Shown here in pieces: positions 2,759 to 52,529 of a stretch of DNA of 64,000 nucleotides. Position 1 is the first letter of the stretch, and every line of letters begins with the position of its first letter. Under the pieces are notes generated by a model that saw nothing but the letters and a program-made list of their open reading frames with translations, was not told the DNA's origin and did no database searches. A program made the position numbers and the translations under genes. This stretch comes from an uncultured Klebsiella sp. (GTDB lineage Bacteria; Verrucomicrobiota; Verrucomicrobiia; Limisphaerales; SXTU01), in NCBI GenBank assembly GCA_964478755.1, contig CAYZJP010000002.1:9984-73983 (forward strand). The letters are read 5' to 3'.

Positions 2759-3586
2759 CTAAAAGTTGAAGAAGTTGGTGATGCCCAGTGTGGCGTTGTT
2801 GATGAAGCGCCCGTCGGCGTTGGGGCCGCTCACCGGTTTGGCCTTCGCGACGCTGCCGTCCATGAAGGTCCACATCAGGCGTCCGCCGTGGGCTCCGCGC
2901 TTGGTGATCTGGCCGGTGTAGCGCGTGGGGTCATCGTAGTAGCCGGGCGGGGCGTTGACGTCGATGCCGACGACGTTGGTGCTCATGTCCGAGGTGACGA
3001 AGTTGCGCGTGGGCTGCGGCCACTGCTGGACGCGCTTGGAGGGTGCCCAGGCCGAGGCCGCACCAGTGAAGGCGTTCACGCCGGTGAGCCGGCCCCACAT
3101 GAGGGTGACATTCGCGTTGCGCTAGTCCACGGGCCGGTCGTTGAAACGGAGTTCGTAGCGGCTGACGGCGTTGAGGAAACTGCCGGTGAAGTGCGACTCC
3201 CCATACAATGCCGGACAGCGGGCGACCTTCGCCTCCTGTGCGGTCGTGGGCCACGTGTTGGTGGCCGCCAGGCCAAGGTAGCCGCGCAGAAAGAAGGCTC
3301 CATAGACGCGGTTGGCCAGATCCAAGTCTGCGCGCATGATGCGGGGATAGAACGCGGTGCCCATGCCGCCCGGGAGGAAGTCATCGTGGTCGCTGTGATA
3401 CAGGTTCACCGCGAGAATGACCTGCTTGCTGTTGTTCGCGCACACGCCGCCCCGGCCGGCCTGCTTGGCCTTGGCCAGCGCGGGCAGAAGCATCCCCGCG
3501 AGGATCGCGATGATGGCGATGACGACGAGTAATTCTATGAGCGTGAAACCACCAAGTTTGAGTGAGGCTGGGCGCATGGTTTTCAT
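2759..3586 (-). pseudogene. Prepilin-type N-terminal cleavage/methylation protein with C-terminal H-X9-DG motif, interrupted by an in-frame TAG at 3122-3124
   Basis: [25 protein letters not shown] at the N-terminus. ORFs 3122..3586 and 2759..3100 are in the same frame (...DRPVD*RNANVTLMWG...). The distal part carries HGGRLMWTFMDG. Confidence 0.8.
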
Positions 3587-17238: not shown

Positions 17239-17448
17239 GCAAGCCGGAGGCTTGCCAGCCATTAGCCGGGGGTTGAGCGTCAGCGATACCCCCGGTCAAC
17301 GGGCCGGGCGCAGCACCGCGTGAGCGGTGCCAGAGCGACTGCGGCGGCCGCTGCGACGCCTTCGGCGTCGTTGACTTCTCGCCGTAGTCCGGGGGTATCG
17401 TCGCTAGGCTCCTCAACCTCCGGCTAATGGCTGGCATCGCTCCGCGAT
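17239..17448. repeat. REP-doublet (REPIN)-like long inverted-repeat element
   Basis: Arms TGCCAGCCATTAGCCGGGGGTTGAG and CTCAACCTCCGGCTAATGGCTGGCA, inner arms CGATACCCCCGG/CCGGGGGTATCG, a GGA-loop mini-hairpin at each end, internal GTGA- and TTCG-loop hairpins. Confidence 0.75.
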
Positions 17449-20898: not shown

Positions 20899-20927
20899 AT
20901 CATTGAGACTCGCACATCGGTAACGAC

Positions 20928-21076
20928 CTCTCATTAGCACCGGGCTTCAGCCCGGTGTGAACGGCTTCGGCGGCGGAAAACCGTTTCAACGGTTTTCCAC
21001 CTTTCAGCAAGCCGTTGAAACGGCTTGCCTCGACGCCGGGCCGCAACACCCGGCTGAAGCCGGGTGCTAATGAGAG
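20928..21076. repeat. Palindromic MITE/REP-like element, family A (intergenic copy)
   Basis: TIRs CTCTCATTAGCACCGGGCTTCAGCCCGGTGT and ACACCCGGCTGAAGCCGGGTGCTAATGAGAG; two internal palindromes; related copy at 35568. Confidence 0.9.
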
Positions 21077-21115
21077 GGAGAGCGCGTTGTCCATTTTCAC
21101 AAGCTTCGACAAATC

Positions 21116-33900: not shown

Positions 33901-34041
33901 GCGGCGTGAAGTTCGAGCCAATCCGCCCGCACGACTCACCGCCGCTTGCTCAAGGTTCGCCCACATTTGCGAAGCTTGGCCGTGCGATGCAGTTGTCCTG
34001 CGGCTGGTGAACGCTTACGCTGCGCGGCAAGTCTGTTCACC

Positions 34042-37000
34042 ATGCACCGCCACGCCGCCTTTCGCCTGCTGTTCGTCACCGCTGTCGTCTGCCTGGTTAA
34101 TGCGCCGCCGTGTCGCGCCGCTGTGAGCCACGGCTTCCGCGTGCCGGATGGCTTCGAGGTCTCGCTCTACGCCAGCGACGATCTTGCGCACGACATCTTC
34201 TCCATGACCACGGATGCCAAGGGCCGCATCGTTGTCGCGGGCAAGGACTACGTGAAAATCCTCCACGACACCGACGGCGACGGGAAGGCCGACAGGGCCA
34301 CGCTCTTCGTGAAGGCCAGCAAGTCCGGAGCGCATGGAATGTATTTCGAGGGCAACGACCTCATCATGAACGGCGACGGTGGCATCCGCCGCTGGCGCGA
34401 CACGGACGGCGACGGCGTGGCCGATGGCGAACCGGAGTTCTGGCTGCGCACCGAACGCGACGGCGAGCACTCGGCGAATGGGATTGTGAAGGGACCGGAC
34501 GGCTGGTTCTACATGATCTGCGGCAACGACGCGGGCATCTCCAGCGAACACGCGAAACTCCCCGGCTCGCCGATCAAACAAGTCAACGCCGGTGCGCTCG
34601 TCCGCATTTCACCCGACGGCAAGACGAGCGAAGTTCTCGCGCACGGCTTCCGCAACCCCTACGACCTCGACTTCCATCCCTTCGGAAACATTTTCACCTA
34701 CGACGCCGATGGGGAGCGCGATCACCATCTTCCGTGGTATTCTGGCACGCGCATCTTCGACATCGCCATCGGCGCGCACCACGGCTGGGTGCTCAAGGGC
34801 TGGAGCCACGCTTGGAACCGCCCGCCCGCCTGGCCCGACAATACCGAGCGCCTCTGGGAAGTCGGGCGCGGCTCGCCCACGGGCGTCTTCGTGTATCGCC
34901 ACCGCGCATTCCCCGAGCGCTACCGCAACGGCTTCTTCGCGCTCTGCTGGACTTACGGACGGCTCTACTTTTTCCCGCTAAAACGGCGCGGCAGCACGTT
35001 CGACACGCAGATGGAAATCTTCATGGAGACGGCGGGCGACACCGGCTTCGCGCCCGTGGATGCCGTGGTCGGCCCCGACGGCGATGTCTTCGTCGCCATC
35101 GGCGGACGCGGCACCATCGGCAGCGTCTTCCGCGTGAAATACCGTGCCGGCGACTTGCAGTCGCCGTCCGTGGGCAACAGCAGCACAAACGGCGGCGACT
35201 ACAAGTCGCCAGCACACGTCTTACGCGAAGTCCTCTCCGCCCCGCAAACGCTCTCAAGCTGGTCCCGCGCGAAGTGGGTGCCGCTCGCGAAGGAGTTGGG
35301 CAAGCCCGCCTTCGAGCAAGCCGCGCTGAACGCCAAACTCCCGCTCGTCGAACGCATCCGTGCAGTGGAGGTTCAAGTTGAACTTTTCGACAACCTCACC
35401 GCTGAACACGCGCGCAAGCTCACCAGTTCCAGCGAACCCGAACTCATCGCCCGTGTCGCATGGGCGCTCGCTCGCAGTGTGGAAGCAGAACCGGCTACCA
35501 AGCTCCTCGCCGAACTCACCCGCCGCGATGACCCGCGCATCGCCCGCGCGGCGTGGGAGGCGCTGATCTCATTAGCACCCGGCTTCAGCCGGGTGGAAAC
35601 GTCCGGCAGCGACGAGAAGCCGTTTAAACGGCTTCCATCCGATGCGTCCGGTGACACCGGGCTGAAGTCCGGTGCTAATAAGAAACTTCCTTCGCCGGAT
35701 TGGTTTCGCGGCCTGAACTCGGACGACCGCCGCGTCCGCACCGCCACGGTTCTCGCAGCCCGGGCAATCGGCCCGGACATATTCGTCCGCACCGCGCCGC
35801 CCCGCCAGCTCACCGAGCGTCAGCGCCTCGGCATCCTGCGCATCTACGGCCCTGAGCGCGGCGACGATCCGAACTGGCTGGCGCACTATTTCAACAACGC
35901 CGCCTTCGTCGCCGCGACCTCGCGCGACCCGGTGACGCGGCTCGACGCCGTGCGACTGCTTCAGCTCGGCCTCGGCGATGTGAAGCTCGTGCAGGACAAG
36001 CCTGACACCTACGATGGCTTCGTCGCCAGCCGGACGGAAGAAATCCCCACGCCGCTGTGCCAGCACGTTGTCGAGCGTGTCGCACCCGCGTTCCCCACCG
36101 GCGACGCCGACCTCGACCGCGAACTCGGCCGTCTGCTCGCCATGCTTTCCGCCGACTCGCCCGGCCTGCTCGCGCGTGTCACCACCAAGCTCACCGACAC
36201 CAGCCCCGTTGAGGACGACATTCATTTCCTCATGGTTGCTGCGCGGCTGCCGACGCCCCGCGACGCGGAAAGCACCGCACGCATCGCGCACGCGGTTGCA
36301 AACTTGCAGTTGAAAATGCTGGCGGGCGGAAAGGAACCAAGCCACTTCTGGCCGGAACGTGTCGGCAATATGTTCGCGCGGCTGCTACTCCAAGACCCCG
36401 GCTTGCCCGACGCCTTGATTCACTCGACCAGCTTTTGCCTCGCCGACCATTCGCTGCTTGGTCAAAAACTGCCCGCTGCGAACCAGCCAGCAGCCGCGCT
36501 CAAACTGTTCGAGCGCACGACAAGCTGCCTGACCGTCAAGGGTTACACTTGGACCCCTGAGCTTGTTGGCTTTCTAAGCCTTCTGCCCGACACGGTTCTC
36601 TTGCCGGAGATTCGCCGGCAGTGGAAAGAGTATCCGCCACTGCGCGACGCGTTCATCCGCGTGCTCGCGCGTGCTCCGCAGGTCGAGGACCGCGCGCGCT
36701 TCGTAACCGCGCTCGGCTCGTTTCAGCCTGCCGTGGTGGAACTCGCCGCGAAGTCGCTCGCGCAACTCAGCGGCGAAGCCGCGCCGAACGAATTCGCCGC
36801 TGCGCTGGCTTCGCTGCGCCGCGAGTGCGCTGCGCTGAAGGAGAAGGCCGCTCGCACTGCGTTGGCAGAGTTGCTCGCAAAGTGGAGCGGGCAGAACATC
36901 GCCGTCACCGAGACTGGCGATTTGTTCAAGGCCTACGCGCCGTGGTTCGATTGGTTCGCCAAGGCGCATCCCGCCGCGGCGAAAGAGCTGCTGGGCGGCA

Positions 37001-37458
37001 ATGAGGACACGGCGGCGTTTCTAAAGCGCCTGCCTGCCATCGCGTGGGACGCGGGTGACGCCCAGCGCGGCCAACGGCTTTACGAGGAGCGGGCGTGCCA
37101 TCGCTGCCATTCCAGCAGCACGCGCATCGGGCCGGACCTGACGGGCGTGGCGAGCCGGCTGTCACGCGAAGATTTGTTCATCGCGATCCTCGATCCTAGC
37201 CGCGACATCTCACCGGCGTATGTGCCGAAGCTGCTTACCACGAAGTCCGGCTCGACCTACACGGGCTTCCTCGTCTATGATTCGCCGACGGCCAAACTCG
37301 TGCAGACCGGTCCCGACACAACGGTGCGGCTTACCGGGGACGAAGTGACGAGCGTGGTGGACACGCGGGTGTCCTTGATGCCGATGGGTTTGCTAAACGG
37401 GCTGAAGGACGGTGAAGTTGCCGACTTCTACGCGTTCCTGAAGACGCTGAAGAAGTAG
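34042..37458 (+). CDS. PVC-type membrane-bound dehydrogenase-like protein (beta-propeller, HEAT-like repeats, C-terminal heme-binding domain) with two in-frame palindromic insertions
   Basis: GFRVPDGFEVSLYA, GFRNPYDLDF, GRGSPTG, GDAQRGQRLY...CHRCH...IGPDLT, VSLMPMGL. Confidence 0.85.
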   Translation: MHRHAAFRLLFVTAVVCLVNAPPCRAAVSHGFRVPDGFEVSLYASDDLAHDIFSMTTDAKGRIVVAGKDYVKILHDTDGDGKADRATLFVKASKSGAHGMYFEGNDLIMNGDGGIRRWRDTDGDGVADGEPEFWLRTERDGEHSANGIVKGPDGWFYMICGNDAGISSEHAKLPGSPIKQVNAGALVRISPDGKTSEVLAHGFRNPYDLDFHPFGNIFTYDADGERDHHLPWYSGTRIFDIAIGAHHGWVLKGWSHAWNRPPAWPDNTERLWEVGRGSPTGVFVYRHRAFPERYRNGFFALCWTYGRLYFFPLKRRGSTFDTQMEIFMETAGDTGFAPVDAVVGPDGDVFVAIGGRGTIGSVFRVKYRAGDLQSPSVGNSSTNGGDYKSPAHVLREVLSAPQTLSSWSRAKWVPLAKELGKPAFEQAALNAKLPLVERIRAVEVQVELFDNLTAEHARKLTSSSEPELIARVAWALARSVEAEPATKLLAELTRRDDPRIARAAWEALISLAPGFSRVETSGSDEKPFKRLPSDASGDTGLKSGANKKLPSPDWFRGLNSDDRRVRTATVLAARAIGPDIFVRTAPPRQLTERQRLGILRIYGPERGDDPNWLAHYFNNAAFVAATSRDPVTRLDAVRLLQLGLGDVKLVQDKPDTYDGFVASRTEEIPTPLCQHVVERVAPAFPTGDADLDRELGRLLAMLSADSPGLLARVTTKLTDTSPVEDDIHFLMVAARLPTPRDAESTARIAHAVANLQLKMLAGGKEPSHFWPERVGNMFARLLLQDPGLPDALIHSTSFCLADHSLLGQKLPAANQPAAALKLFERTTSCLTVKGYTWTPELVGFLSLLPDTVLLPEIRRQWKEYPPLRDAFIRVLARAPQVEDRARFVTALGSFQPAVVELAAKSLAQLSGEAAPNEFAAALASLRRECAALKEKAARTALAELLAKWSGQNIAVTETGDLFKAYAPWFDWFAKAHPAAAKELLGGNEDTAAFLKRLPAIAWDAGDAQRGQRLYEERACHRCHSSSTRIGPDLTGVASRLSREDLFIAILDPSRDISPAYVPKLLTTKSGSTYTGFLVYDSPTAKLVQTGPDTTVRLTGDEVTSVVDTRVSLMPMGLLNGLKDGEVADFYAFLKTLKK
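35144..35215. repeat. 72-bp palindromic element, family C, in frame within the CDS
   Basis: GTGCCGGCGACTTGCAGTCGCC ... GGCGACTACAAGTCGCCAGCAC inverted arms, each itself a hairpin; translates as AGDLQSP...GDYKSPA. Confidence 0.75.
35568..35682. repeat. Family A palindromic element, in frame within the CDS
   Basis: CTCATTAGCACCCGGCTTCAGCCGGGTG ... CACCGGGCTGAAGTCCGGTGCTAATAAG with core AAGCCGTTTAAACGGCTT; same ends and core as 20928..21076. Confidence 0.9.
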
Positions 37459-45572: not shown

Positions 45573-48500
45573 ATGCCTATGAAATCCATGCTGAAATTTG
45601 CGGTGGTCGTGACCGCCGCTTCGTTCACCGCGCCGGTCTTCGCGCAGGACAAGCCGCTCACGCCGGAGGAGAGTGAGTTCTTCGAGGCCAAAATTCGTCC
45701 CGCGCTGATTGAGCACTGCCACAAGTGCCACAGCGGCGACAAGGACGCCAAAGTAAAGGGCAGTTTCCAGCTCGACTCCAAGGCTGGCCTGCTGAAGGGC
45801 GGCTCCACCGGGCCGGGTCTCGTCCCCGGTCAGCCCGACCGTTCGCTCATCATCAAGGCGATGCGCTACGCGGACCCGAATCTCCAGATGCCGCCCAAGG
45901 AAAAAGTCCCCGAGTCCGTGCTGGCCGACTTTGAGAACTGGGTTCGCATGGGTGCGCCCGACCCGCGCAGCGGCAAGGCGGCAGGGATGCTAAAAAATGA
46001 GGAAGACCTCGCCAAGGCCCGGAAACACTGGGCCTTTCAACCCGTCGTCAAGCCGGAGCCCCCCAAGCCCAAGGCGCATTTGAAGGGGTGGATTCAAAAT
46101 GAGGTTGACCTCTTCGTCCTCGCCAAGCTGGAGGAGAAAGGGATGTTCCCTTCGCCAATGGCGGACAAATGGACACTCGTTCGCCGCGCCTATTTTGACC
46201 TGCTCGGCATGCCGCCCTCCGCGAAAGAGGCCGAGGAGTTCGTCAACGACGAGTCGAAGGACGCGTGGCCCAAGCTGATTGACAAACTGCTCGCCTCCCC
46301 GCACTACGGCGAGCGTTGGGGCCGCTACTGGCTCGACATCGCGCGTTACGCTGACACGCGCGGCGGCGGGAACGCCAACCGGATGGGCGACAACCGTCTC
46401 CTCCATGCCTACACCTACCGTGACTGGGTGGTGAACGCGATCAACGAGGACATGCCCTATGACAAGTTCCTCAAGTATCAGATCGCGGCGGACTGCCTGC
46501 CCGGCACCGAAGCCAAGAACCTTGCCGCGCTGGGATTCATCACGCTCAACCGCGCCGTGAACAACCAGCAGGAGCGGATTGACGACCGCATTGACGTGGT
46601 GACCCGCGGCACGATGTCGCTCTCGGTTTATTGCGCCCGCTGCCACGACCACAAGTTTGATCCCATCCCGACGAAGGATTACTACTCGCTCTACGGTGTC
46701 TTCGACAGCAGCGTGGACGCCGTCGCCAAGCCATTGATCCAAAAGGTGGAGGACACGCCGCAGTATCGTGATTACCTCGCCAAGAAGGCCCAGATTGAGG
46801 CGGATCAGGAAGGCTTCCGCCGCTCTCAAGTCGGAACATTTGTAGGCGAGGCGAAGGGCAAGACGATGGAGTATATGCTCGCCATTCACTATGCGAATCT
46901 GGGCAACACGAACTATATGTTGCAGGGGCGTGCCGACCAGACGCGCTTCGATCAGATGACAAAATTGCATTTCGAGGTGGCTAACGACTGGAAACGCTAT
47001 CTCAACCAGCATAACAAGGCCAATGATCCCGTCTTCGGTCCATGGCATGACTATTCCAAGCTCGTGGAGGAGGACAAAGTCTCCGACAAGGACTTTGCCG
47101 CCAAGAGCAGGGAGCTTGCCGCCAAATATATGAGCAAGGACGGCGAGCCAATGAAGGGTCTTAACCCCGTCATCGCCAAGGCGTTTTCCACGCCAGTCCC
47201 CAGCATCCGCGTCGTGGCCGAGCGCTACTCCAAGATCTTCCTCGACGCCGAGAAGGCCTGGGTCACTGCCATCACACTGGACGCGAAGAAAAAGAAGGAC
47301 GATGGCGATCCGATGTTGAAGAAACTTTCAGACCCCTCGCAGGAGCAGCTCCGGCAGGTGTTCTATGGCCAAGGCTCACCTGTCAATATCACCTATGATC
47401 GCCTGGCCGGCTTCAAAAACGGGGCCATCCGCAATCAGGAACAGCAGCAGTTCGGCGACCGTATGGACAAGCTCGAAGCCACGCATCCCGGTGCGCCCAC
47501 CCGTGCGATGGCCGTTGGCGATGGCAATCCGCACAACGCAAAAGTGCTCATCAAGGGAATGCCGAACAATCCCGGTCCTGATCTCATTCCCCGTCAGTTC
47601 CTCGAAATCTTGAACCCGAACCGCAAGCCGTTCACCAAAGGCAGTGGACGCGGCGAGCTCGCCGAGGAGATCGCCAGCAAGAGCAATCCGCTCACCGCCC
47701 GCGTGCTCATCAATCGCGTTTGGATGAACCATTTCGGCGGCGCGCTGGTCCGCACCCCGACCGACTTTGGTGTTCGTGCGGATGACCCCACGCATCCCGA
47801 GCTGCTCAATTATCTCTCGGCCTGGGTGATGGAGAACAACTGGTCTGTCAAGGCGCTCCACAAATATATCATGACCTCGGCAGCTTATATGCAGAGCAGC
47901 GACGACCGCGCCAAGCCGTTGATCAACGACCCCGCGAACCTATACGTCTGGAAGATGAACCGCCGCCGCCTCGACTTCGAGGGCTTCCGCGATTCGCTTC
48001 TGGCTGTCAGCGGCAAGCTTGATCCCACGATGGGCGGGCGTCCGGTGAAGATCACCCCCGACGGCGCGAACCCGCTTGGCTACTCTGAGAACCCCTACCG
48101 CCGCACCCTTTATGGCTACATTGATCGCGGCAATCTCTCCTCGCTCTATCGCACGTTCGACTTCGCCAACCCGGACGCGACCGCTGGCATGCGCTTCAGT
48201 TCGACCGTGCCGCAGCAGGCGCTCTACTTGATGAACAGCCCGTTTATCGCCGAGCTGGCGCGTGCCATCGTCCACCGCGACGACGTGAAGAACAAAGTGG
48301 ACGAGGAGCAACGCATCGAGATGCTTTACCAGATCTGTTTCCAGCGTATGCCGGTCCCGTTGGAGACCAAGATCGGCATGAGATTTCTGGAGGAGCAGTC
48401 CGGCGTGAAGGGCAGCGACGCCAAGCCCCTCTGGCAATACGGCTACGGCCAATACGACGCGCGTAACCGCCGAGTGTCCTTCTTCAAAATGCCAAACTAC

Positions 48501-49172
48501 GCCTCCGGCACGGGCGGGGGAATGCGCATGAACATGAACATGGCCGCCCTCGGCCAATATGACGGCGGCACCAACAGCCGTCTGGCCGGCATTCAACTTA
48601 CTGCCGGTGGCGGCACCGCCGGCATCGTCGCAGTCATTCGTCGCTTTACCGCGCCTGTGGACGCCACGCTCACGATTGATGGCAAGCTCGAACAGAAAGG
48701 CAGCTTGGGCGACGGCGTCGGTGGCTACATCGTGCACAGCCGCTCCGGCCAGCTCGGAGCCTACGCCTTGGCGGGTCGGAACCGCAGCGCGGACACGAAG
48801 GTCGCCAAGGTGGATGTGAAGAAGGGCGACACGATTGACTTCATCGTGGACAACGGCGGCAAGGGCAACACGATCGGGGACACCTTCACTTGGGCGCCGA
48901 CCCTGCGTGTTGGCGCGGCTGCGGCCACGATGACTGCTTCCGCCGCTCCTGCCATGACGCCCTTCGGTGGCGCGGTGGCTCCCGCCGCCGCTCCGGCGAT
49001 GAACGCGGGCGCAGGGGGCATGGCCATGGGCGGCCAGATGGGCGGCACCACCAGTTGGAGCGCCGCCACCGGCTTTGGCGGGCCAAACGCCGGCCAGCAA
49101 AAGCCTCTCGACACCTGGGAGAAATACGCGCAGATGCTGCTCCTCGCCAACGAGATGACGTTCGTTGACTGA
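45573..49172 (+). CDS. Planctomycete cytochrome c + DUF1549 + DUF1553 protein with extra domains and Met/Gly/Ala-rich linkers
   Basis: CHKCH, HYGERWGRYWLDIARYADT, CARCHDHKFDPI, RVLINRVWMNHFG, PTHPELL, QQALYLMN. Confidence 0.9.
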   Translation: MPMKSMLKFAVVVTAASFTAPVFAQDKPLTPEESEFFEAKIRPALIEHCHKCHSGDKDAKVKGSFQLDSKAGLLKGGSTGPGLVPGQPDRSLIIKAMRYADPNLQMPPKEKVPESVLADFENWVRMGAPDPRSGKAAGMLKNEEDLAKARKHWAFQPVVKPEPPKPKAHLKGWIQNEVDLFVLAKLEEKGMFPSPMADKWTLVRRAYFDLLGMPPSAKEAEEFVNDESKDAWPKLIDKLLASPHYGERWGRYWLDIARYADTRGGGNANRMGDNRLLHAYTYRDWVVNAINEDMPYDKFLKYQIAADCLPGTEAKNLAALGFITLNRAVNNQQERIDDRIDVVTRGTMSLSVYCARCHDHKFDPIPTKDYYSLYGVFDSSVDAVAKPLIQKVEDTPQYRDYLAKKAQIEADQEGFRRSQVGTFVGEAKGKTMEYMLAIHYANLGNTNYMLQGRADQTRFDQMTKLHFEVANDWKRYLNQHNKANDPVFGPWHDYSKLVEEDKVSDKDFAAKSRELAAKYMSKDGEPMKGLNPVIAKAFSTPVPSIRVVAERYSKIFLDAEKAWVTAITLDAKKKKDDGDPMLKKLSDPSQEQLRQVFYGQGSPVNITYDRLAGFKNGAIRNQEQQQFGDRMDKLEATHPGAPTRAMAVGDGNPHNAKVLIKGMPNNPGPDLIPRQFLEILNPNRKPFTKGSGRGELAEEIASKSNPLTARVLINRVWMNHFGGALVRTPTDFGVRADDPTHPELLNYLSAWVMENNWSVKALHKYIMTSAAYMQSSDDRAKPLINDPANLYVWKMNRRRLDFEGFRDSLLAVSGKLDPTMGGRPVKITPDGANPLGYSENPYRRTLYGYIDRGNLSSLYRTFDFANPDATAGMRFSSTVPQQALYLMNSPFIAELARAIVHRDDVKNKVDEEQRIEMLYQICFQRMPVPLETKIGMRFLEEQSGVKGSDAKPLWQYGYGQYDARNRRVSFFKMPNYASGTGGGMRMNMNMAALGQYDGGTNSRLAGIQLTAGGGTAGIVAVIRRFTAPVDATLTIDGKLEQKGSLGDGVGGYIVHSRSGQLGAYALAGRNRSADTKVAKVDVKKGDTIDFIVDNGGKGNTIGDTFTWAPTLRVGAAAATMTASAAPAMTPFGGAVAPAAAPAMNAGAGGMAMGGQMGGTTSWSAATGFGGPNAGQQKPLDTWEKYAQMLLLANEMTFVD

Positions 49173-49204: not shown

Positions 49205-49235
49205 AGGCCGCCGTCATCGGCGGCCTTTGTGCTTT
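49205..49235 (+). terminator. Intrinsic terminator
   Basis: AGGCCGCCG-TCAT-CGGCGGCCT followed by TTGTGCTTT. Confidence 0.6.
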
Positions 49236-49304
49236 CCGAAGCGCACTCCGCGCTTGGAAATCTCGTGCAACTCCGCTCCCCTTTGCTACGTCCAACAAAC
49301 CACC

Positions 49305-52300
49305 ATGCCCGTCTCGAAGTCTTTGATTCAGCAGAGCGCCGGCCTCCTGGCCCGCGTCGGCGCGCTCTTACTGATCGCTGTGGTGAGCGCCGCCGCCGCC
49401 GACCGCGCGCGTTCCGTGGACTTCGAGCGCGAAATTCTTCCCATCTTCCAACGTGTCTGCTTCGAGTGCCACGATGCAAAGCAGAAGAAGGGCAAACTTC
49501 GTCTCGACTCCCGCGTCGCCGCCCTCCAGAAGCCCGGCATCATCGTTCCCGGCAATTCCGCGCGGAGCGAGCTTGTCCGCCGCATCACATTGCCTAAGGG
49601 CCATGACGATGTTATGCCCAATCGTGGCGAGCCGCTCTCCCAATCACAGGCCGACCTCATCAAGACCTGGATGGACCAGGGCGCGGTCTGGCCGGAGAGC
49701 CTGCAAGCCACGAAGCACTGGGCCTACGTGAAACCTGTTCGTCCCGCCGTCCCTTCAATCGCCAATCGCCAATCCTCCGCCGGCAATCCCATTGACGCCT
49801 TCGTCCTCGCCCGCCTCCAGCAGGAAGGTCTCAAGCCTTCTCCCGAAGCCCCGTCTGAAATCCTTGCCCGACGCCTCTGCCTCGATCTCATCGGATTGCC
49901 GCCCTCCCCTGCGCAAACAGAAGCCTTCGCACAGCGCGCCGCCCACAACCCTCAACAGGCTGTCGAGAAACTTGTGGACGAGCTCCTCGCCTCGCCGCAG
50001 TTCGGCGTCCGCTGGGCACGCCCGTGGCTCGACTACGCGCGCTACGCGGACTCGCACGGGTTTCAACGCGACGACTTTCGCGACCTTTGGCCGTATCGCG
50101 ACTGGGTGGTGAACGCGCTGAATGCCGATATGCCATTCACGCAGTTCACCACCGAGCAGCTCGCGGGCGATTTGCTGCCGAACGCCACCGAGTCGCAGAA
50201 GATTGCCACCGGCTTCAACCGCAGCGCGCCCACAAACGTCGAGGCCGGCACCGACCCGGAGGAGACGCGCGTGAACCAGATTCACGACCGCGTGAACACG
50301 CTCGGCATGACCTGGCTCGGCGTCACGCTGGAGTGCTGCCAGTGTCATGACCACAAATATGATCCGTTCACCCAGCGCGACTACTACGGCCTCTTCGCCT
50401 TCTTCAACAACACCGCGCTCGAAGCCGACCGCACGAACCCCAAGGTGCCCGGCTCGATCCAGTTCAAAGGCCCGACGATAGATCTCGCTGACGCAGCGAC
50501 GCAGGCCGAGCGCGTGAAGCTGAACACGCAAATCGCCGAAGTGAATGCGAAGCTTGCTGTGTTGGAAAAATCCGCCGCAGCGGGTCAACTCGAATGGGAA
50601 ATGACGCTTGGCAAAAAGGTCGCCGAAGCGCCGAAACAATATGCGCTCGACATCGCGAAGTTCGAGTCCACCGGCGGCGCGACGCATGAAATCCTCACCG
50701 ACAAATCCGTGCTCATCAGTGGCGAGCCTGCGCCTGACAAGGATACTTACATCGTCGAAGTGCGCACGAAGATCACGGGCATTCGTGGCTTCAAACTCGA
50801 AACGCTCACGGATGATTCACTGCCCGGCAAAGGCCCTGGTCGCGGTGACGAGAAGCGACCTAACTTTGTGCTGAACAACTTTACCGTCACCGCTGCGCCG
50901 GCTAACAAACCAGAGCAGGCGAAGCCCGTGAAATTTTCATCGGCACAGGCGTCGTTCTCGCAGGCGAATTATCCGGTGGCGAATTTGCTCAACACCGACA
51001 ACACCGCGAAGGGCGGCTGGGCCATCAATCCGAAGTTTCACGAACCGCATTGGGCTGTGCTGGAAACCGCCGAGCCGGTCGGCTTTGCCGAAGGCACTGT
51101 GTTGAAGTTCAAGCTGGAGCAAGGCTTCGGCGCGAGCCGGACGATTGGCCGGCTCCGCTTGTGCGCCATCACGGGAAACGTCGGTGGCAAGGCGCTGCCG
51201 GTGGAACTGACCGAGGCGCTTGCGGTTCCGGTCGCCAGGCGAACGGCGAAGCAGAAGAAATTCGTGATGGAATTTCAATTGAAGGAGAACCCCGAGTTCG
51301 CGCGGCTGGAGAAGGAGAGGAGCCGGCTGGGTTTGCAGTTGTTGAAAATCAAACCAAGCACCACGCTGGTCATGCAGGAGGACTCGCCGCGTATGAGCGC
51401 GGTTTTCCAACGCGGCGATTTCCGCACGCCCGGCGAGAAGGTCGAGCCGCACACACCGGCGGTGCTGCATTCTTTGGGGAGCGCACGCGTCACGCGTGCT
51501 GACTTCGGCGTTCCGCCGAAATCTTCGTCCATCAATTTGAGTCCTGAACGCGCGTCGGGCGAGACGTCCGAGGCGGCACGCGAGACGCGTGCGCTCCCCA
51601 ATCGCCTGGACCTCGCGCAGTGGCTCGTGAGCCGCGAGAACCCGCTCGTCGCACGGGTCGTGGTGAACCGTTGGTGGGCGGAATTGTTCGGTCACGGCCT
51701 CGTCACCACGCCGGAGGATTTCGGCATCAAGGGCGAGTTGCCGACCCACCCCGAGTTGCTCGACTGGCTTGCGTGCGAGTTCATGGACAACGGCTGGTCG
51801 ATGAAGAAGACGCTCAAGACCATCGTGATGAGCGCGACCTACCGGCAGTCGTCGCGCGTCACGCCGGAGTCGTTCGCGCGCGATGACCAGAATCTCCTCT
51901 ACGCGCGTGGCCCTCGGCATCGGCTCGAAGCGGAGATGATTCGCGACAACGCGCTCGCGATTTCCGGTCTGTTGAGCTTCAAGCAGGGCGGCGCGCCCAT
52001 CAAACCGTATCAGCCTGACGGCCTGTGGGTGAAAGTTGGCGGCCAGCGTTACGACTACGAAGTCAGCCCCGGCGAGGAAAAATACCGTCGCGGCCTCTAC
52101 GTCGTGTGGAAACGCGGCGCGCCGTATCCGAGCTTTGTGAACTTCGACGCCAACAGCCGTCTCGCCTGCCGCGTGAAGCGCCCGCGCTCGAACACGCCGC
52201 TGCAAGCCCTCACGCTGATGAACGACCCGGTCTATGTCGAAGCCGCAATGGCCTTCGCCAAGCGCGTGCTGACGGAGAAGCCCACGGCCAACACCGACGA

Positions 52301-52529
52301 GCGCATCGCCCATGCCTTCCGGCTCGCGATGGCCCGCGCCCCGCGCGCTGGAGAACTTGCCACGCTCACGCAACTCCTGGAGGTGTCGCGCGCGAAGGAC
52401 GCGAAGGCAGCGAAGGAGTTCATCGCCAACTTCGCGCTGCCCACGGGCGTCACCGCCGAGGAATTCACCGCGTGGTATGCGGTGGCGGCGGCGCTGCTGA
52501 ACCTGGACGAAACAATCACAAAGGGATAA
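49305..52529 (+). CDS. Planctomycete cytochrome c + DUF1549 + discoidin-like insert + DUF1553 protein with an in-frame palindromic insertion
   Basis: CFECH, FGVRWARPWLDYARYADS, ECCQCHDHKYDP, ARVVVNRWW, SNTPLQALTLMN, LLNLDETITKG. Confidence 0.9.
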   Translation: MPVSKSLIQQSAGLLARVGALLLIAVVSAAAADRARSVDFEREILPIFQRVCFECHDAKQKKGKLRLDSRVAALQKPGIIVPGNSARSELVRRITLPKGHDDVMPNRGEPLSQSQADLIKTWMDQGAVWPESLQATKHWAYVKPVRPAVPSIANRQSSAGNPIDAFVLARLQQEGLKPSPEAPSEILARRLCLDLIGLPPSPAQTEAFAQRAAHNPQQAVEKLVDELLASPQFGVRWARPWLDYARYADSHGFQRDDFRDLWPYRDWVVNALNADMPFTQFTTEQLAGDLLPNATESQKIATGFNRSAPTNVEAGTDPEETRVNQIHDRVNTLGMTWLGVTLECCQCHDHKYDPFTQRDYYGLFAFFNNTALEADRTNPKVPGSIQFKGPTIDLADAATQAERVKLNTQIAEVNAKLAVLEKSAAAGQLEWEMTLGKKVAEAPKQYALDIAKFESTGGATHEILTDKSVLISGEPAPDKDTYIVEVRTKITGIRGFKLETLTDDSLPGKGPGRGDEKRPNFVLNNFTVTAAPANKPEQAKPVKFSSAQASFSQANYPVANLLNTDNTAKGGWAINPKFHEPHWAVLETAEPVGFAEGTVLKFKLEQGFGASRTIGRLRLCAITGNVGGKALPVELTEALAVPVARRTAKQKKFVMEFQLKENPEFARLEKERSRLGLQLLKIKPSTTLVMQEDSPRMSAVFQRGDFRTPGEKVEPHTPAVLHSLGSARVTRADFGVPPKSSSINLSPERASGETSEAARETRALPNRLDLAQWLVSRENPLVARVVVNRWWAELFGHGLVTTPEDFGIKGELPTHPELLDWLACEFMDNGWSMKKTLKTIVMSATYRQSSRVTPESFARDDQNLLYARGPRHRLEAEMIRDNALAISGLLSFKQGGAPIKPYQPDGLWVKVGGQRYDYEVSPGEEKYRRGLYVVWKRGAPYPSFVNFDANSRLACRVKRPRSNTPLQALTLMNDPVYVEAAMAFAKRVLTEKPTANTDERIAHAFRLAMARAPRAGELATLTQLLEVSRAKDAKAAKEFIANFALPTGVTAEEFTAWYAVAAALLNLDETITKG
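51474..51601. repeat. Palindromic element, family D, in frame within the CDS
   Basis: TIRs TTGGGGAGCGCACGCGTCACGCGTGC and GCACGCGAGACGCGTGCGCTCCCCAA; translates as LGSARVTRADFGVPPK...AARETRALP. Confidence 0.85.

Follow-up and report, generated by a model that had tools for sequence, protein, structure and literature searches.

Repetitive extragenic palindromes (REPs) of Escherichia coli and Pseudomonas are short hairpin units, occurring singly and as inverted doublets (REPINs), that are mostly extragenic and are partnered by a Y1 transposase, the REP-associated tyrosine transposase (RAYT), whose gene has inverted units on either side (Nunvar 2010; Bertels & Rainey 2011, PMC3116915). In a stretch of 64,000 nt of contig CAYZJP010000002.1 (assembly GCA_964478755.1, positions 9,984 to 73,983; hereafter the window), deposited as an uncultured Klebsiella sp. 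and placed by GTDB in the Verrucomicrobiota (Limisphaerales), a palindromic element at 51474-51601 represents a repeat family with hairpin units of this kind, in singlets and inverted doublets, and with a Y1 transposase so flanked, whose copies also appear to lie mostly outside genes. The element lies in frame within a gene for a PSCyt1/PSCyt2/PSD1 protein and is most probably a REPIN of a RAYT-associated family, tolerated at an inter-domain linker that has been recurrently invaded. The family differs from the classical systems in its head (GGGGAGCGC, not GTAG), in having two hairpins per unit, in the conservation of its 24-nt head phylum-wide rather than genus-wide, and in that the units flanking its RAYT are predicted to be translated, with the RAYT usually nested in another gene.

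A second described group, the TIRYT genes or 'TIRtrons' (Di Nocera et al. 2013, PMC3733652; subclass 2.1 of Quentin et al. 2018, PMC6006769), consists of RAYT-like genes with longer inverted repeats that carry a GGGGWSAS motif. These repeats start GGGG[AT][CG]A[CG] and occur as dimer families of moderate abundance; the head of the window's family (GGGGAGCG) fits seven of the eight positions and, as an aligned motif, is closer to the GGGGWSAS 'TIR' repeats (PMC3733652) than to GTAG. Whereas TIRYT proteins are described with extra C-terminal helix-turn-helix domains, the RAYT of the window's family is a core of ~158 aa that passes the REP_Tyr_transpos model, and neither a Verrucomicrobiota example nor intragenic nesting is described for TIRYTs.

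In-frame palindromes as such are already known (PMC3733652). Rickettsia palindromic elements (RPEs; Ogata et al. 2000, as summarised in PMC3733652) are 100-150 bp long, lie in frame in many coding genes, housekeeping genes included, and were judged to occupy tolerant surface regions. Their likeness to the window's element is one of functional analogy only; the sequences are called unrelated by description, the host phylum differs, and in that summary a dedicated transposase is known for neither RPEs nor CGTC repeats. Intragenic REPs were most numerous in the verrucomicrobium Opitutus terrae and were argued to be neutral in linkers (PMC3733652). The O. terrae GTAG REPs resemble the window's element in coming from the same phylum and in being translated, as monomers and dimers, within real genes (uvrA, ligase, helicases), but they belong to other repeat families, and the peptides listed for them (VGPALAAG, GTGVPPV...) are unlike that of the window; SARV, TRALP and RDACAP were not found in the tables of PMC3733652.

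The palindrome, its repeat family and its transposase

The 26-nt ends of the element (TTGGGGAGCGCACGCGTCACGCGTGC ... GCACGCGAGACGCGTGCGCTCCCCAA; 51474-51499 and 51576-51601) are reverse complements with one mismatch, at the centre of a 3-nt loop, and the arms reach 44 nt at 82% complementarity. An internal hairpin, TTCGGCG-TTC-CGCCGAA, is present at 51505-51521, and a second, degraded, at 51552-51574. The predicted RNA fold reaches -83.9 kcal/mol, versus -53.7 +/- 4.0 kcal/mol in 200 dinucleotide shuffles, none of which folded as well (z = -7.6). These ends, the internal hairpin and the in-frame position of the element at the start of the DUF1553 domain had been read correctly in the initial annotation of the stretch, as had a GGGAGC...GCTCCC core of 123 bp (41 codons) between PAVLHSL and NRLDLAQWL, with the slight correction that the conserved family unit, GGGG...CCCC, is 124 nt long (51476-51599). 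The parts of the element and its host gene are listed in Table 1.

Table 1. Positions in the window of the host gene, the palindromic element and its parts
Feature	Positions	Strand	Basis
Host gene for a PSCyt1 + PSCyt2 (DUF1549) + PSD1 (DUF1553) protein; PSD1 from 51600	49305..52529	+	Pfam
Whole palindrome TT-GGGG...CCCC-AA, predicted REP doublet (REPIN), heads outward	51474..51601	+	arm complementarity, fold
Left unit head, GGGGAGCGC + hairpin 1 GCACGCG-TCA-CGCGTGC; 24-nt motif kept phylum-wide	51476..51499	+	
41 in-frame codons given to the host protein (GSARVTRADFGVPPKSSSINLSPERASGETSEAARETRALP)	51477..51599	+	
Left unit hairpin 2, GACTTCGGCG-TTC-CGCCGAAATC, one stem mismatch	51501..51523	+	
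Central spacer of the doublet, variable	51524..51551	+	
Right unit hairpin 2, GCGTCGGGCG-AGA-CGTCCGAGGC, two stem mismatches, i.e. decaying	51552..51574	-	
Right unit head; reverse complement exactly GGGGAGCGCACGCGTCTCGCGTGC	51576..51599	-	

The repeat unit of the family is ~48 nt long and comprises two hairpins (GGGGAGCGC-ACGCGTCYCGCGT-GC followed by N5-GGCG-TCN-CGCC-N5). Hairpin 1 is GCACGCG-TCN-CGCGTGC in the aligned copies, and hairpin 2 has an invariant GGCG-TCN-CGCC core with an outer stem of 5-6 bp of free sequence. The 24-nt head GGGGAGCGCACGCGTCNCGCGTGC occurs in more than 116 contigs among the matches listed, almost all of them from Verrucomicrobiota (including Opitutae, Chthoniobacterales, Limisphaerales, Verrucomicrobiae, Methylacidiphilum and Pelagicoccus), which agrees with the initial annotation in that the in-frame insert belongs to a dispersed repeat family. 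The copies at loci L001-L116 comprise 73 singlets and 59 inverted doublets, heads outward, which span 95-160 nt and vary at the centre, and the window copy is a doublet of this kind. Several contigs of a single metagenome-assembled genome (MAG) may carry the unit, and about 12 extra copies were counted by eye in ~750 kb of flanking sequence, roughly one per 60 kb.

The stems of the unit are maintained by paired changes. Across 100 distinct copies, 96.9% of stem cells are paired, versus 27-53% with a slid partner. Double-sided changes affect 286 cells versus 75 in shuffles, with none of 500 shuffles as high; the outer stem of hairpin 2 draws on all four Watson-Crick pairs. Due to this strong pairing and covariation, the hairpin structure can be considered what is conserved in the family.

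At two loci (L087 and L028), an open reading frame (ORF) that comes after a singlet has an HUH motif and a Pfam Y1_Tnp match; the RAYT ORF scores 81.1 bits against NCBIfam REP_Tyr_transpos, above the equivalog cutoff of 80 bits. Its relatives were examined as the best 80 of at least 537 in species-representative genomes (loci L121-L200, 78 of the 80 from different assemblies), chosen by closeness to a query nested in an alanyl-tRNA synthetase (AlaRS) gene. The HUH motif is found in all 80 and the tyrosine of a Y-x-x-x-NP helix in 77, and none has an internal stop. The tyrosine of 'KESYDR' was rejected as the catalytic residue, being phenylalanine in 77 of the 80; the conserved tyrosine is that of the Y-x-x-x-NP helix. 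Inverted units lie within 300 nt on both sides of the RAYT at 53 of the 80 loci, an arrangement that, from the predicted units, is the defining one of REP/RAYT systems.

These features are consistent with a mechanism in which the RAYT would recognise and cut the TCN-loop hairpins as single-stranded DNA and so spread copies, by analogy with IS200/IS605 and the TnpA-REP system of E. coli. The window copy, a putative inverted doublet of a REP-type unit whose family spans the Verrucomicrobiota with an HUH/Y1 RAYT as partner, would have landed in the inter-domain linker just before PSD1, and would have survived there by virtue of a length that is a multiple of three bases, a frame without stops, and the tolerance of this site for unstructured residues. 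In-frame survivors would be common because the family is G+C-rich and stop-poor. The high DNA identity between carriers would then mostly stem from the constraint that transposase recognition places on the repeat throughout the family, rather than from selection acting on the host protein.

Several other classes of element were considered for the palindrome itself. An attC site was rejected on reading the sequence, which has no GTTRRRY cores; an intrinsic terminator was rejected for want of a T-run after the hairpin, and a CRISPR repeat for want of an array.

Some occurrences of the family or of shared sequence fall outside the expected sources. The Verrucomicrobiota repeat or RAYT is also present on contigs of MAGs labelled otherwise, namely L003, L028 and L197 (CAZNOE01, Bifidobacteriaceae), L042 (Hydrogenedentota), L050 (Anaerolineae), L137 (Solirubrobacterales) and L131 (Gemmataceae), through either binning contamination or horizontal spread. 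One public MAG contig ends (L007:1-35) in a Nextera-like adapter sequence (CTGTCTCTTATACACATCTGACGCTGCCGACG) directly after a repeat copy, probably left untrimmed where the contig breaks. Of the 31-mers in window positions 51200-51900, about 6-14% recur in unrelated soil, groundwater, freshwater and wastewater metagenomes (runs X3-X20); their likely origin is the repeat arms or the conserved coding sequence of PSD1, and the contigs of run X3 suggest the latter.

The PSD1 linker and the fate of its inserts

The host ORF extends over 49227-52529 (1100 codons), with the start of the database protein at 49305. The element codons (GGG...CCC) encode G751-P791 of the 1100-aa ORF, between ...PAVLHSL and NRLDLAQWL, and the Pfam PSD1 domain starts at residue 792. 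The host gene is the downstream member of a tandem pair of paralogous PSCyt1/PSCyt2/PSD1 genes (45573-49172 and 49227-52529) with 34-38% identity in the conserved domains, and the element is present only in this downstream member.

The linker between ...VLHxL and (T/N)RLDLAQWL was compared across 119 PSCyt/PSD1 orthologues of 58-78% identity, and four states were found. It is short (no more than 14 aa) in 81 of the 119, as the initial annotation had supposed to be normal; it holds an unrelated palindrome ('...AADVRRLTS...QSLLTSAP') in 23, the repeat family of the window in three, and some other sequence in 12. A junction-specific search gave no match in genome contigs and a single match in metagenome contigs, which is a fourth carrier of the window's family at this linker (L201). 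The carriers do not form a single clade in a neighbour-joining tree, where they are mixed with empty sites on short branches and the distant orthologues are all empty. The initial annotation had named orthologues with the same 41 residues in non-palindromic DNA as the finding that would count against an inserted element; orthologue P0002 has the same 41-aa segment in DNA that is even more palindromic.

The carriers of the window's family at this linker fall into two configurations. The window copy and orthologue locus L117 have the element between L and N-R, with a hairpin 1 of the ACGCG/CGCGT type, whereas L118 and L201 have it between L-K and T-R, with a hairpin 1 of the GGGCG/CGCC(C/T) type; the difference amounts to one host codon at the left junction and two compensatory pair swaps. 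The swapped sub-type of hairpin 1 in L118 and L201 is also present at unrelated loci. The two junction and stem configurations, together with the occurrence of the swapped sub-type elsewhere, therefore indicate at least two insertions of the window's family, and with one insertion of the unrelated palindrome we infer that the PSD1 linker was struck at least three times in related genomes.

The unrelated palindrome was located in L119 (~3220-3320) as a doublet headed by GTAG/GTGG (GTGGCAGCCGACGTCAGGAGGCTC...), and the orthologues P0003-P0043 that are marked 'B' carry it. Orthologue P0021 retains only the centre of this palindrome ('KSEIRNPKSEI'), which suggests collapse by deletion. It is suggestive that some 'empty' linkers, such as those of P0006 (KSAAKETPT) and P0021 with its B-type centre, are remnants of collapsed elements.

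Conservation of the insert was compared with that of the gene around it. Between the window and L117, the gene minus the insert is 76% identical in amino acids, 75% in nucleotides and 56% at third positions, which is near saturation; the insert is 85% identical in nucleotides, 80% at third positions and 71% in amino acids. The excess of nucleotide over amino acid identity in the insert points to constraint on DNA and not on protein. Copies at unrelated loci in other genomes are nearly as close to the window copy (e.g. 80% for the insert in the valyl-tRNA synthetase (ValRS) gene at L063), so that the constraint acts at the level of the family and not of the PSD1 locus.

A local role for the nucleic acid structure, with the long hairpin acting on DNA or mRNA at this site as a translational pause, an mRNA stability element or a protein-binding site, would fit the very stable fold, the terminal arms kept perfectly in the window and L117 although neutral sites are saturated, and the shared junctions and length of these two copies. 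Such a role is nevertheless unlikely, given that copies at unrelated loci are almost as similar and that most orthologues do without the element. The inner hairpins of the window copy have three uncompensated mismatches relative to L117, and the L118 copy is badly decayed (67% nucleotide identity). A scan of positions 51300-51800 with Rfam found no family at the gathering threshold; plant miRNA precursor models alone matched, as long hairpins of a generic kind (37-41 bits versus thresholds of 100-268).

The initial annotation had considered the segment exapted. That the 41 residues have gained a function in the PSD1 protein is very unlikely, even though the segment is in frame in four related genomes and the 'GSARV' frame is the most used among in-gene copies of the family. 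Amino acid identity is below nucleotide identity, with changes spread over all codon positions; most orthologues have no such segment, and on the tree its carriers alternate with close relatives that lack it; the linker also accepts the unrelated palindrome in 23 orthologues. In an AlphaFold2 model, residues 741-798 are predicted to be coil with a predicted local distance difference test score (pLDDT) below 50, and the first helix of PSD1 begins at residue 793. The DNA-level conservation, the low-confidence, structure-free stretch and the uncompensated decay of the inner hairpins suggest that the segment is 'tolerated' rather than 'exapted'.

The initial annotation misread the ends as 'terminal inverted repeats', which would fit a conventional miniature inverted-repeat transposable element, derived by deletion from a DDE-type insertion sequence and marked by such repeats and by target-site duplications. 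The inverted ends and the size of ~125 bp recall such an element, which is otherwise scarcely credible here: the ends are themselves self-folding hairpin units of the REP type, single units exist as well, the gene partnered with the units encodes a Y1 (HUH) transposase, no direct target-site duplication is visible in the flanks, and the flanks are instead complementary (TT...AA), lengthening the palindrome. A chance palindrome in ordinary coding sequence, for which only the high G+C content speaks, is refuted by the z-score of the fold, by the exact 24-mer in more than 116 contigs among the matches listed and by the absence of the segment from most orthologues.

Several observations weigh against the interpretation of the element as a tolerated REPIN. 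The canonical GTAG of classical REPs is absent from the family, more than 90% of whose copies have a GGGG(A)GCGC head. The 64-kb window contains no RAYT and no second copy of the family, even when 7 mismatches in 24 are allowed. Runs X1 and X2 of the source metagenome (rock) were searched for an empty-site allele or an excision; no such allele was found, the main contigs carry the element intact, and no direct sign of mobility was seen; contigs of these runs that appear to 'skip' the element are other copies of the family with different centres. The assignment of disorder is thinly based because the structural model is weak as a whole (mean pLDDT 61.8, predicted TM score 0.36), and the model was used solely for the statement of low-confidence coil. 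Finally, the window copy and L117 have the same junctions, orientation and length (124 nt), and could represent an old orthologous insert kept by selection on a DNA or RNA hairpin, which 'tolerated junk' does not predict.

For the PSD1 gene alone, a tolerated REPIN is one more selfish palindromic DNA in a linker and carries little weight. The repeated insertions at the same linkers (PSD1, DUF7133 and ValRS) make it possible to separate target preference from tolerance, and the phylum-wide 24-nt head with its hairpin architecture offers a clean system for the study of substrate recognition by RAYTs. Peptides such as GSARVxRA...ARETRALP should be flagged in annotation as translated repeats, not conserved domains.

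In-frame copies and nested RAYT cassettes in other genes

The doublets of the family are unusually open to translation: 4.19 of six frames are open on average, versus 2.58 in shuffles and 3.03 in random DNA of the same loci, and all six frames are open in 19% of doublets versus 2%. Among 103 evaluable copies, 33% lie in some read-through frame versus 64% of random positions, and the family is therefore depleted from genes. Because this loose 'read-through ORF' test over-calls in G+C-rich DNA, as the 64% of random positions that pass it illustrate, in-gene copies were identified by a test of codon-position GC combined with Pfam matches of the host ORFs. Twelve of the 103 copies (~10%) pass the codon-position test, and Pfam matches confirm nine of the host ORFs. 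These encode ValRS (with one shared insertion site in two genomes), PurL, QueA, an MFS transporter, a sodium:solute symporter (SSF), a Kelch/NanM protein and two DUF7133 proteins, in one of which (L092) the window's family lies at the end of the DUF7133 domain. The 'GSARV' frame is the commonest among these in-gene copies. The lineage-wide route to loop innovation proposed in the initial annotation stands as a pattern, with about a tenth of copies in frame in genes, but the pattern had already been published for O. terrae and Rickettsia (PMC3733652).

The two ValRS copies (L063:3769-6726 and L077:3381-6326) precede '...KMRFHPQRW/KMKFHPGRW...'; that of L077 is heavily decayed, in a protein with further repeat-like segments. 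A search of the 41-aa peptide of the window against 1.84 billion representative proteins gave only two matches, the query being too short and compositionally biased.

The RAYT of the family is itself frequently found inside other genes. At 74 of the 80 loci the RAYT lies in the sense orientation between the two halves of a housekeeping gene, its frame open into host sequence on both sides (e.g. L121:151-3474, L124:1-3432, L134:301-2880, L127, L132 and L139); this fraction is inflated because the 80 loci are those closest to the AlaRS-nested query. The host is AlaRS at one main site (23 loci, and six more that are probable) and at two further sites (six and three loci), RecG (13 loci), MetH either between the B12-binding and activation domains (10 loci) or between the Hcy-methyltransferase and pterin-binding domains (six loci), ThrRS (five loci) or DnaE (two loci). 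In a tree of the RAYTs, grouping is largely by host gene.

The 5' unit, where detectable, stands in one frame relative to the RAYT at all 60 loci and is read G-S-A-R-x. Between this unit and the RAYT core there is no in-frame ATG at any of the 60 loci, and at the same loci there is no stop between the units and the core. Hence the cassette, from REP to REP, appears to have no ATG start or stop of its own, although GTG or TTG starts are possible, and translation of a host-RAYT fusion is inferred from the open frame.

Free-standing relatives of the RAYT, of 200-270 aa, are numerous in the protein database. Three of them (L202:3001-3654, L203:3001-3627 and L204:3001-3618; 205-217 aa) lie within a type IV pilus-like cluster (Amuc_1102 / PilM / Amuc_1100 / RAYT / unknown / secretin), wedged with gaps of 2-8 nt between its Amuc_1100-like gene and the gene that follows. 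Here also the units lie inside the RAYT ORF, with the ATG upstream of the left unit and the stop downstream of the right unit.

With middling confidence, these arrangements may be attributed to a REP/RAYT lineage adapted to coding sequence, in which a cassette without start or stop would be expressed only within a host protein, usually as an insert at a domain boundary of an essential enzyme. Stop-poor units such as that of the window would be the non-autonomous side of this lineage, which would explain the recurrent in-frame inserts in linkers. A coding-embedded position would provide constitutive expression and protection from deletion, in the manner of an intein without splicing.

Inteins and IStrons place a selfish enzyme gene in frame within conserved housekeeping genes (DnaE, helicases and synthetases). 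The nested RAYTs, and only these members of the family, resemble them in that a selfish enzyme gene lies within housekeeping genes, but differ in that neither intein splicing motifs nor a group I intron were seen, and the insert appears to stay in the mature protein. No report of an in-frame nested REP-RAYT-REP cassette without its own ATG or stop was found in the literature. If RAYTs are indeed expressed only as in-frame passengers of essential proteins, this would represent a novel way for a bacterial mobile element to persist, and the nested RAYTs would be a class of protein previously filtered out, because over-long 'fusion' Y1 proteins were discarded in PMC6006769. The element itself is of moderate interest, which would rise should the family prove to live embedded in coding sequence.

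Other palindromes in the window

The neighbouring gene for a 1170-aa protein (33946-37458, + strand) contains two in-frame palindromic doublets, at 35144-35215 and 35567-35683. They belong to other sequence families than the element of the PSD1 linker (GGCGACT..AGTCGCC hairpins; TCTCATTAGCACCCGGCTTCAGCCGGGTG...), and the initial annotation was right to treat the palindromes at 35144 and 35568 as different element families. The gene product appears similar to the DUF7133/HEAT/cytochrome c proteins of L092 and L013, and the insertion junction of L092 looks equivalent to the one in this gene.

Two further palindromes were noted in the window. One, at 20927-21077, has arms of 32 nt with 94% complementarity and is of the same family as the doublet at 35567-35683; the other, at 17245-17444, has arms of 33 nt with 88% complementarity.

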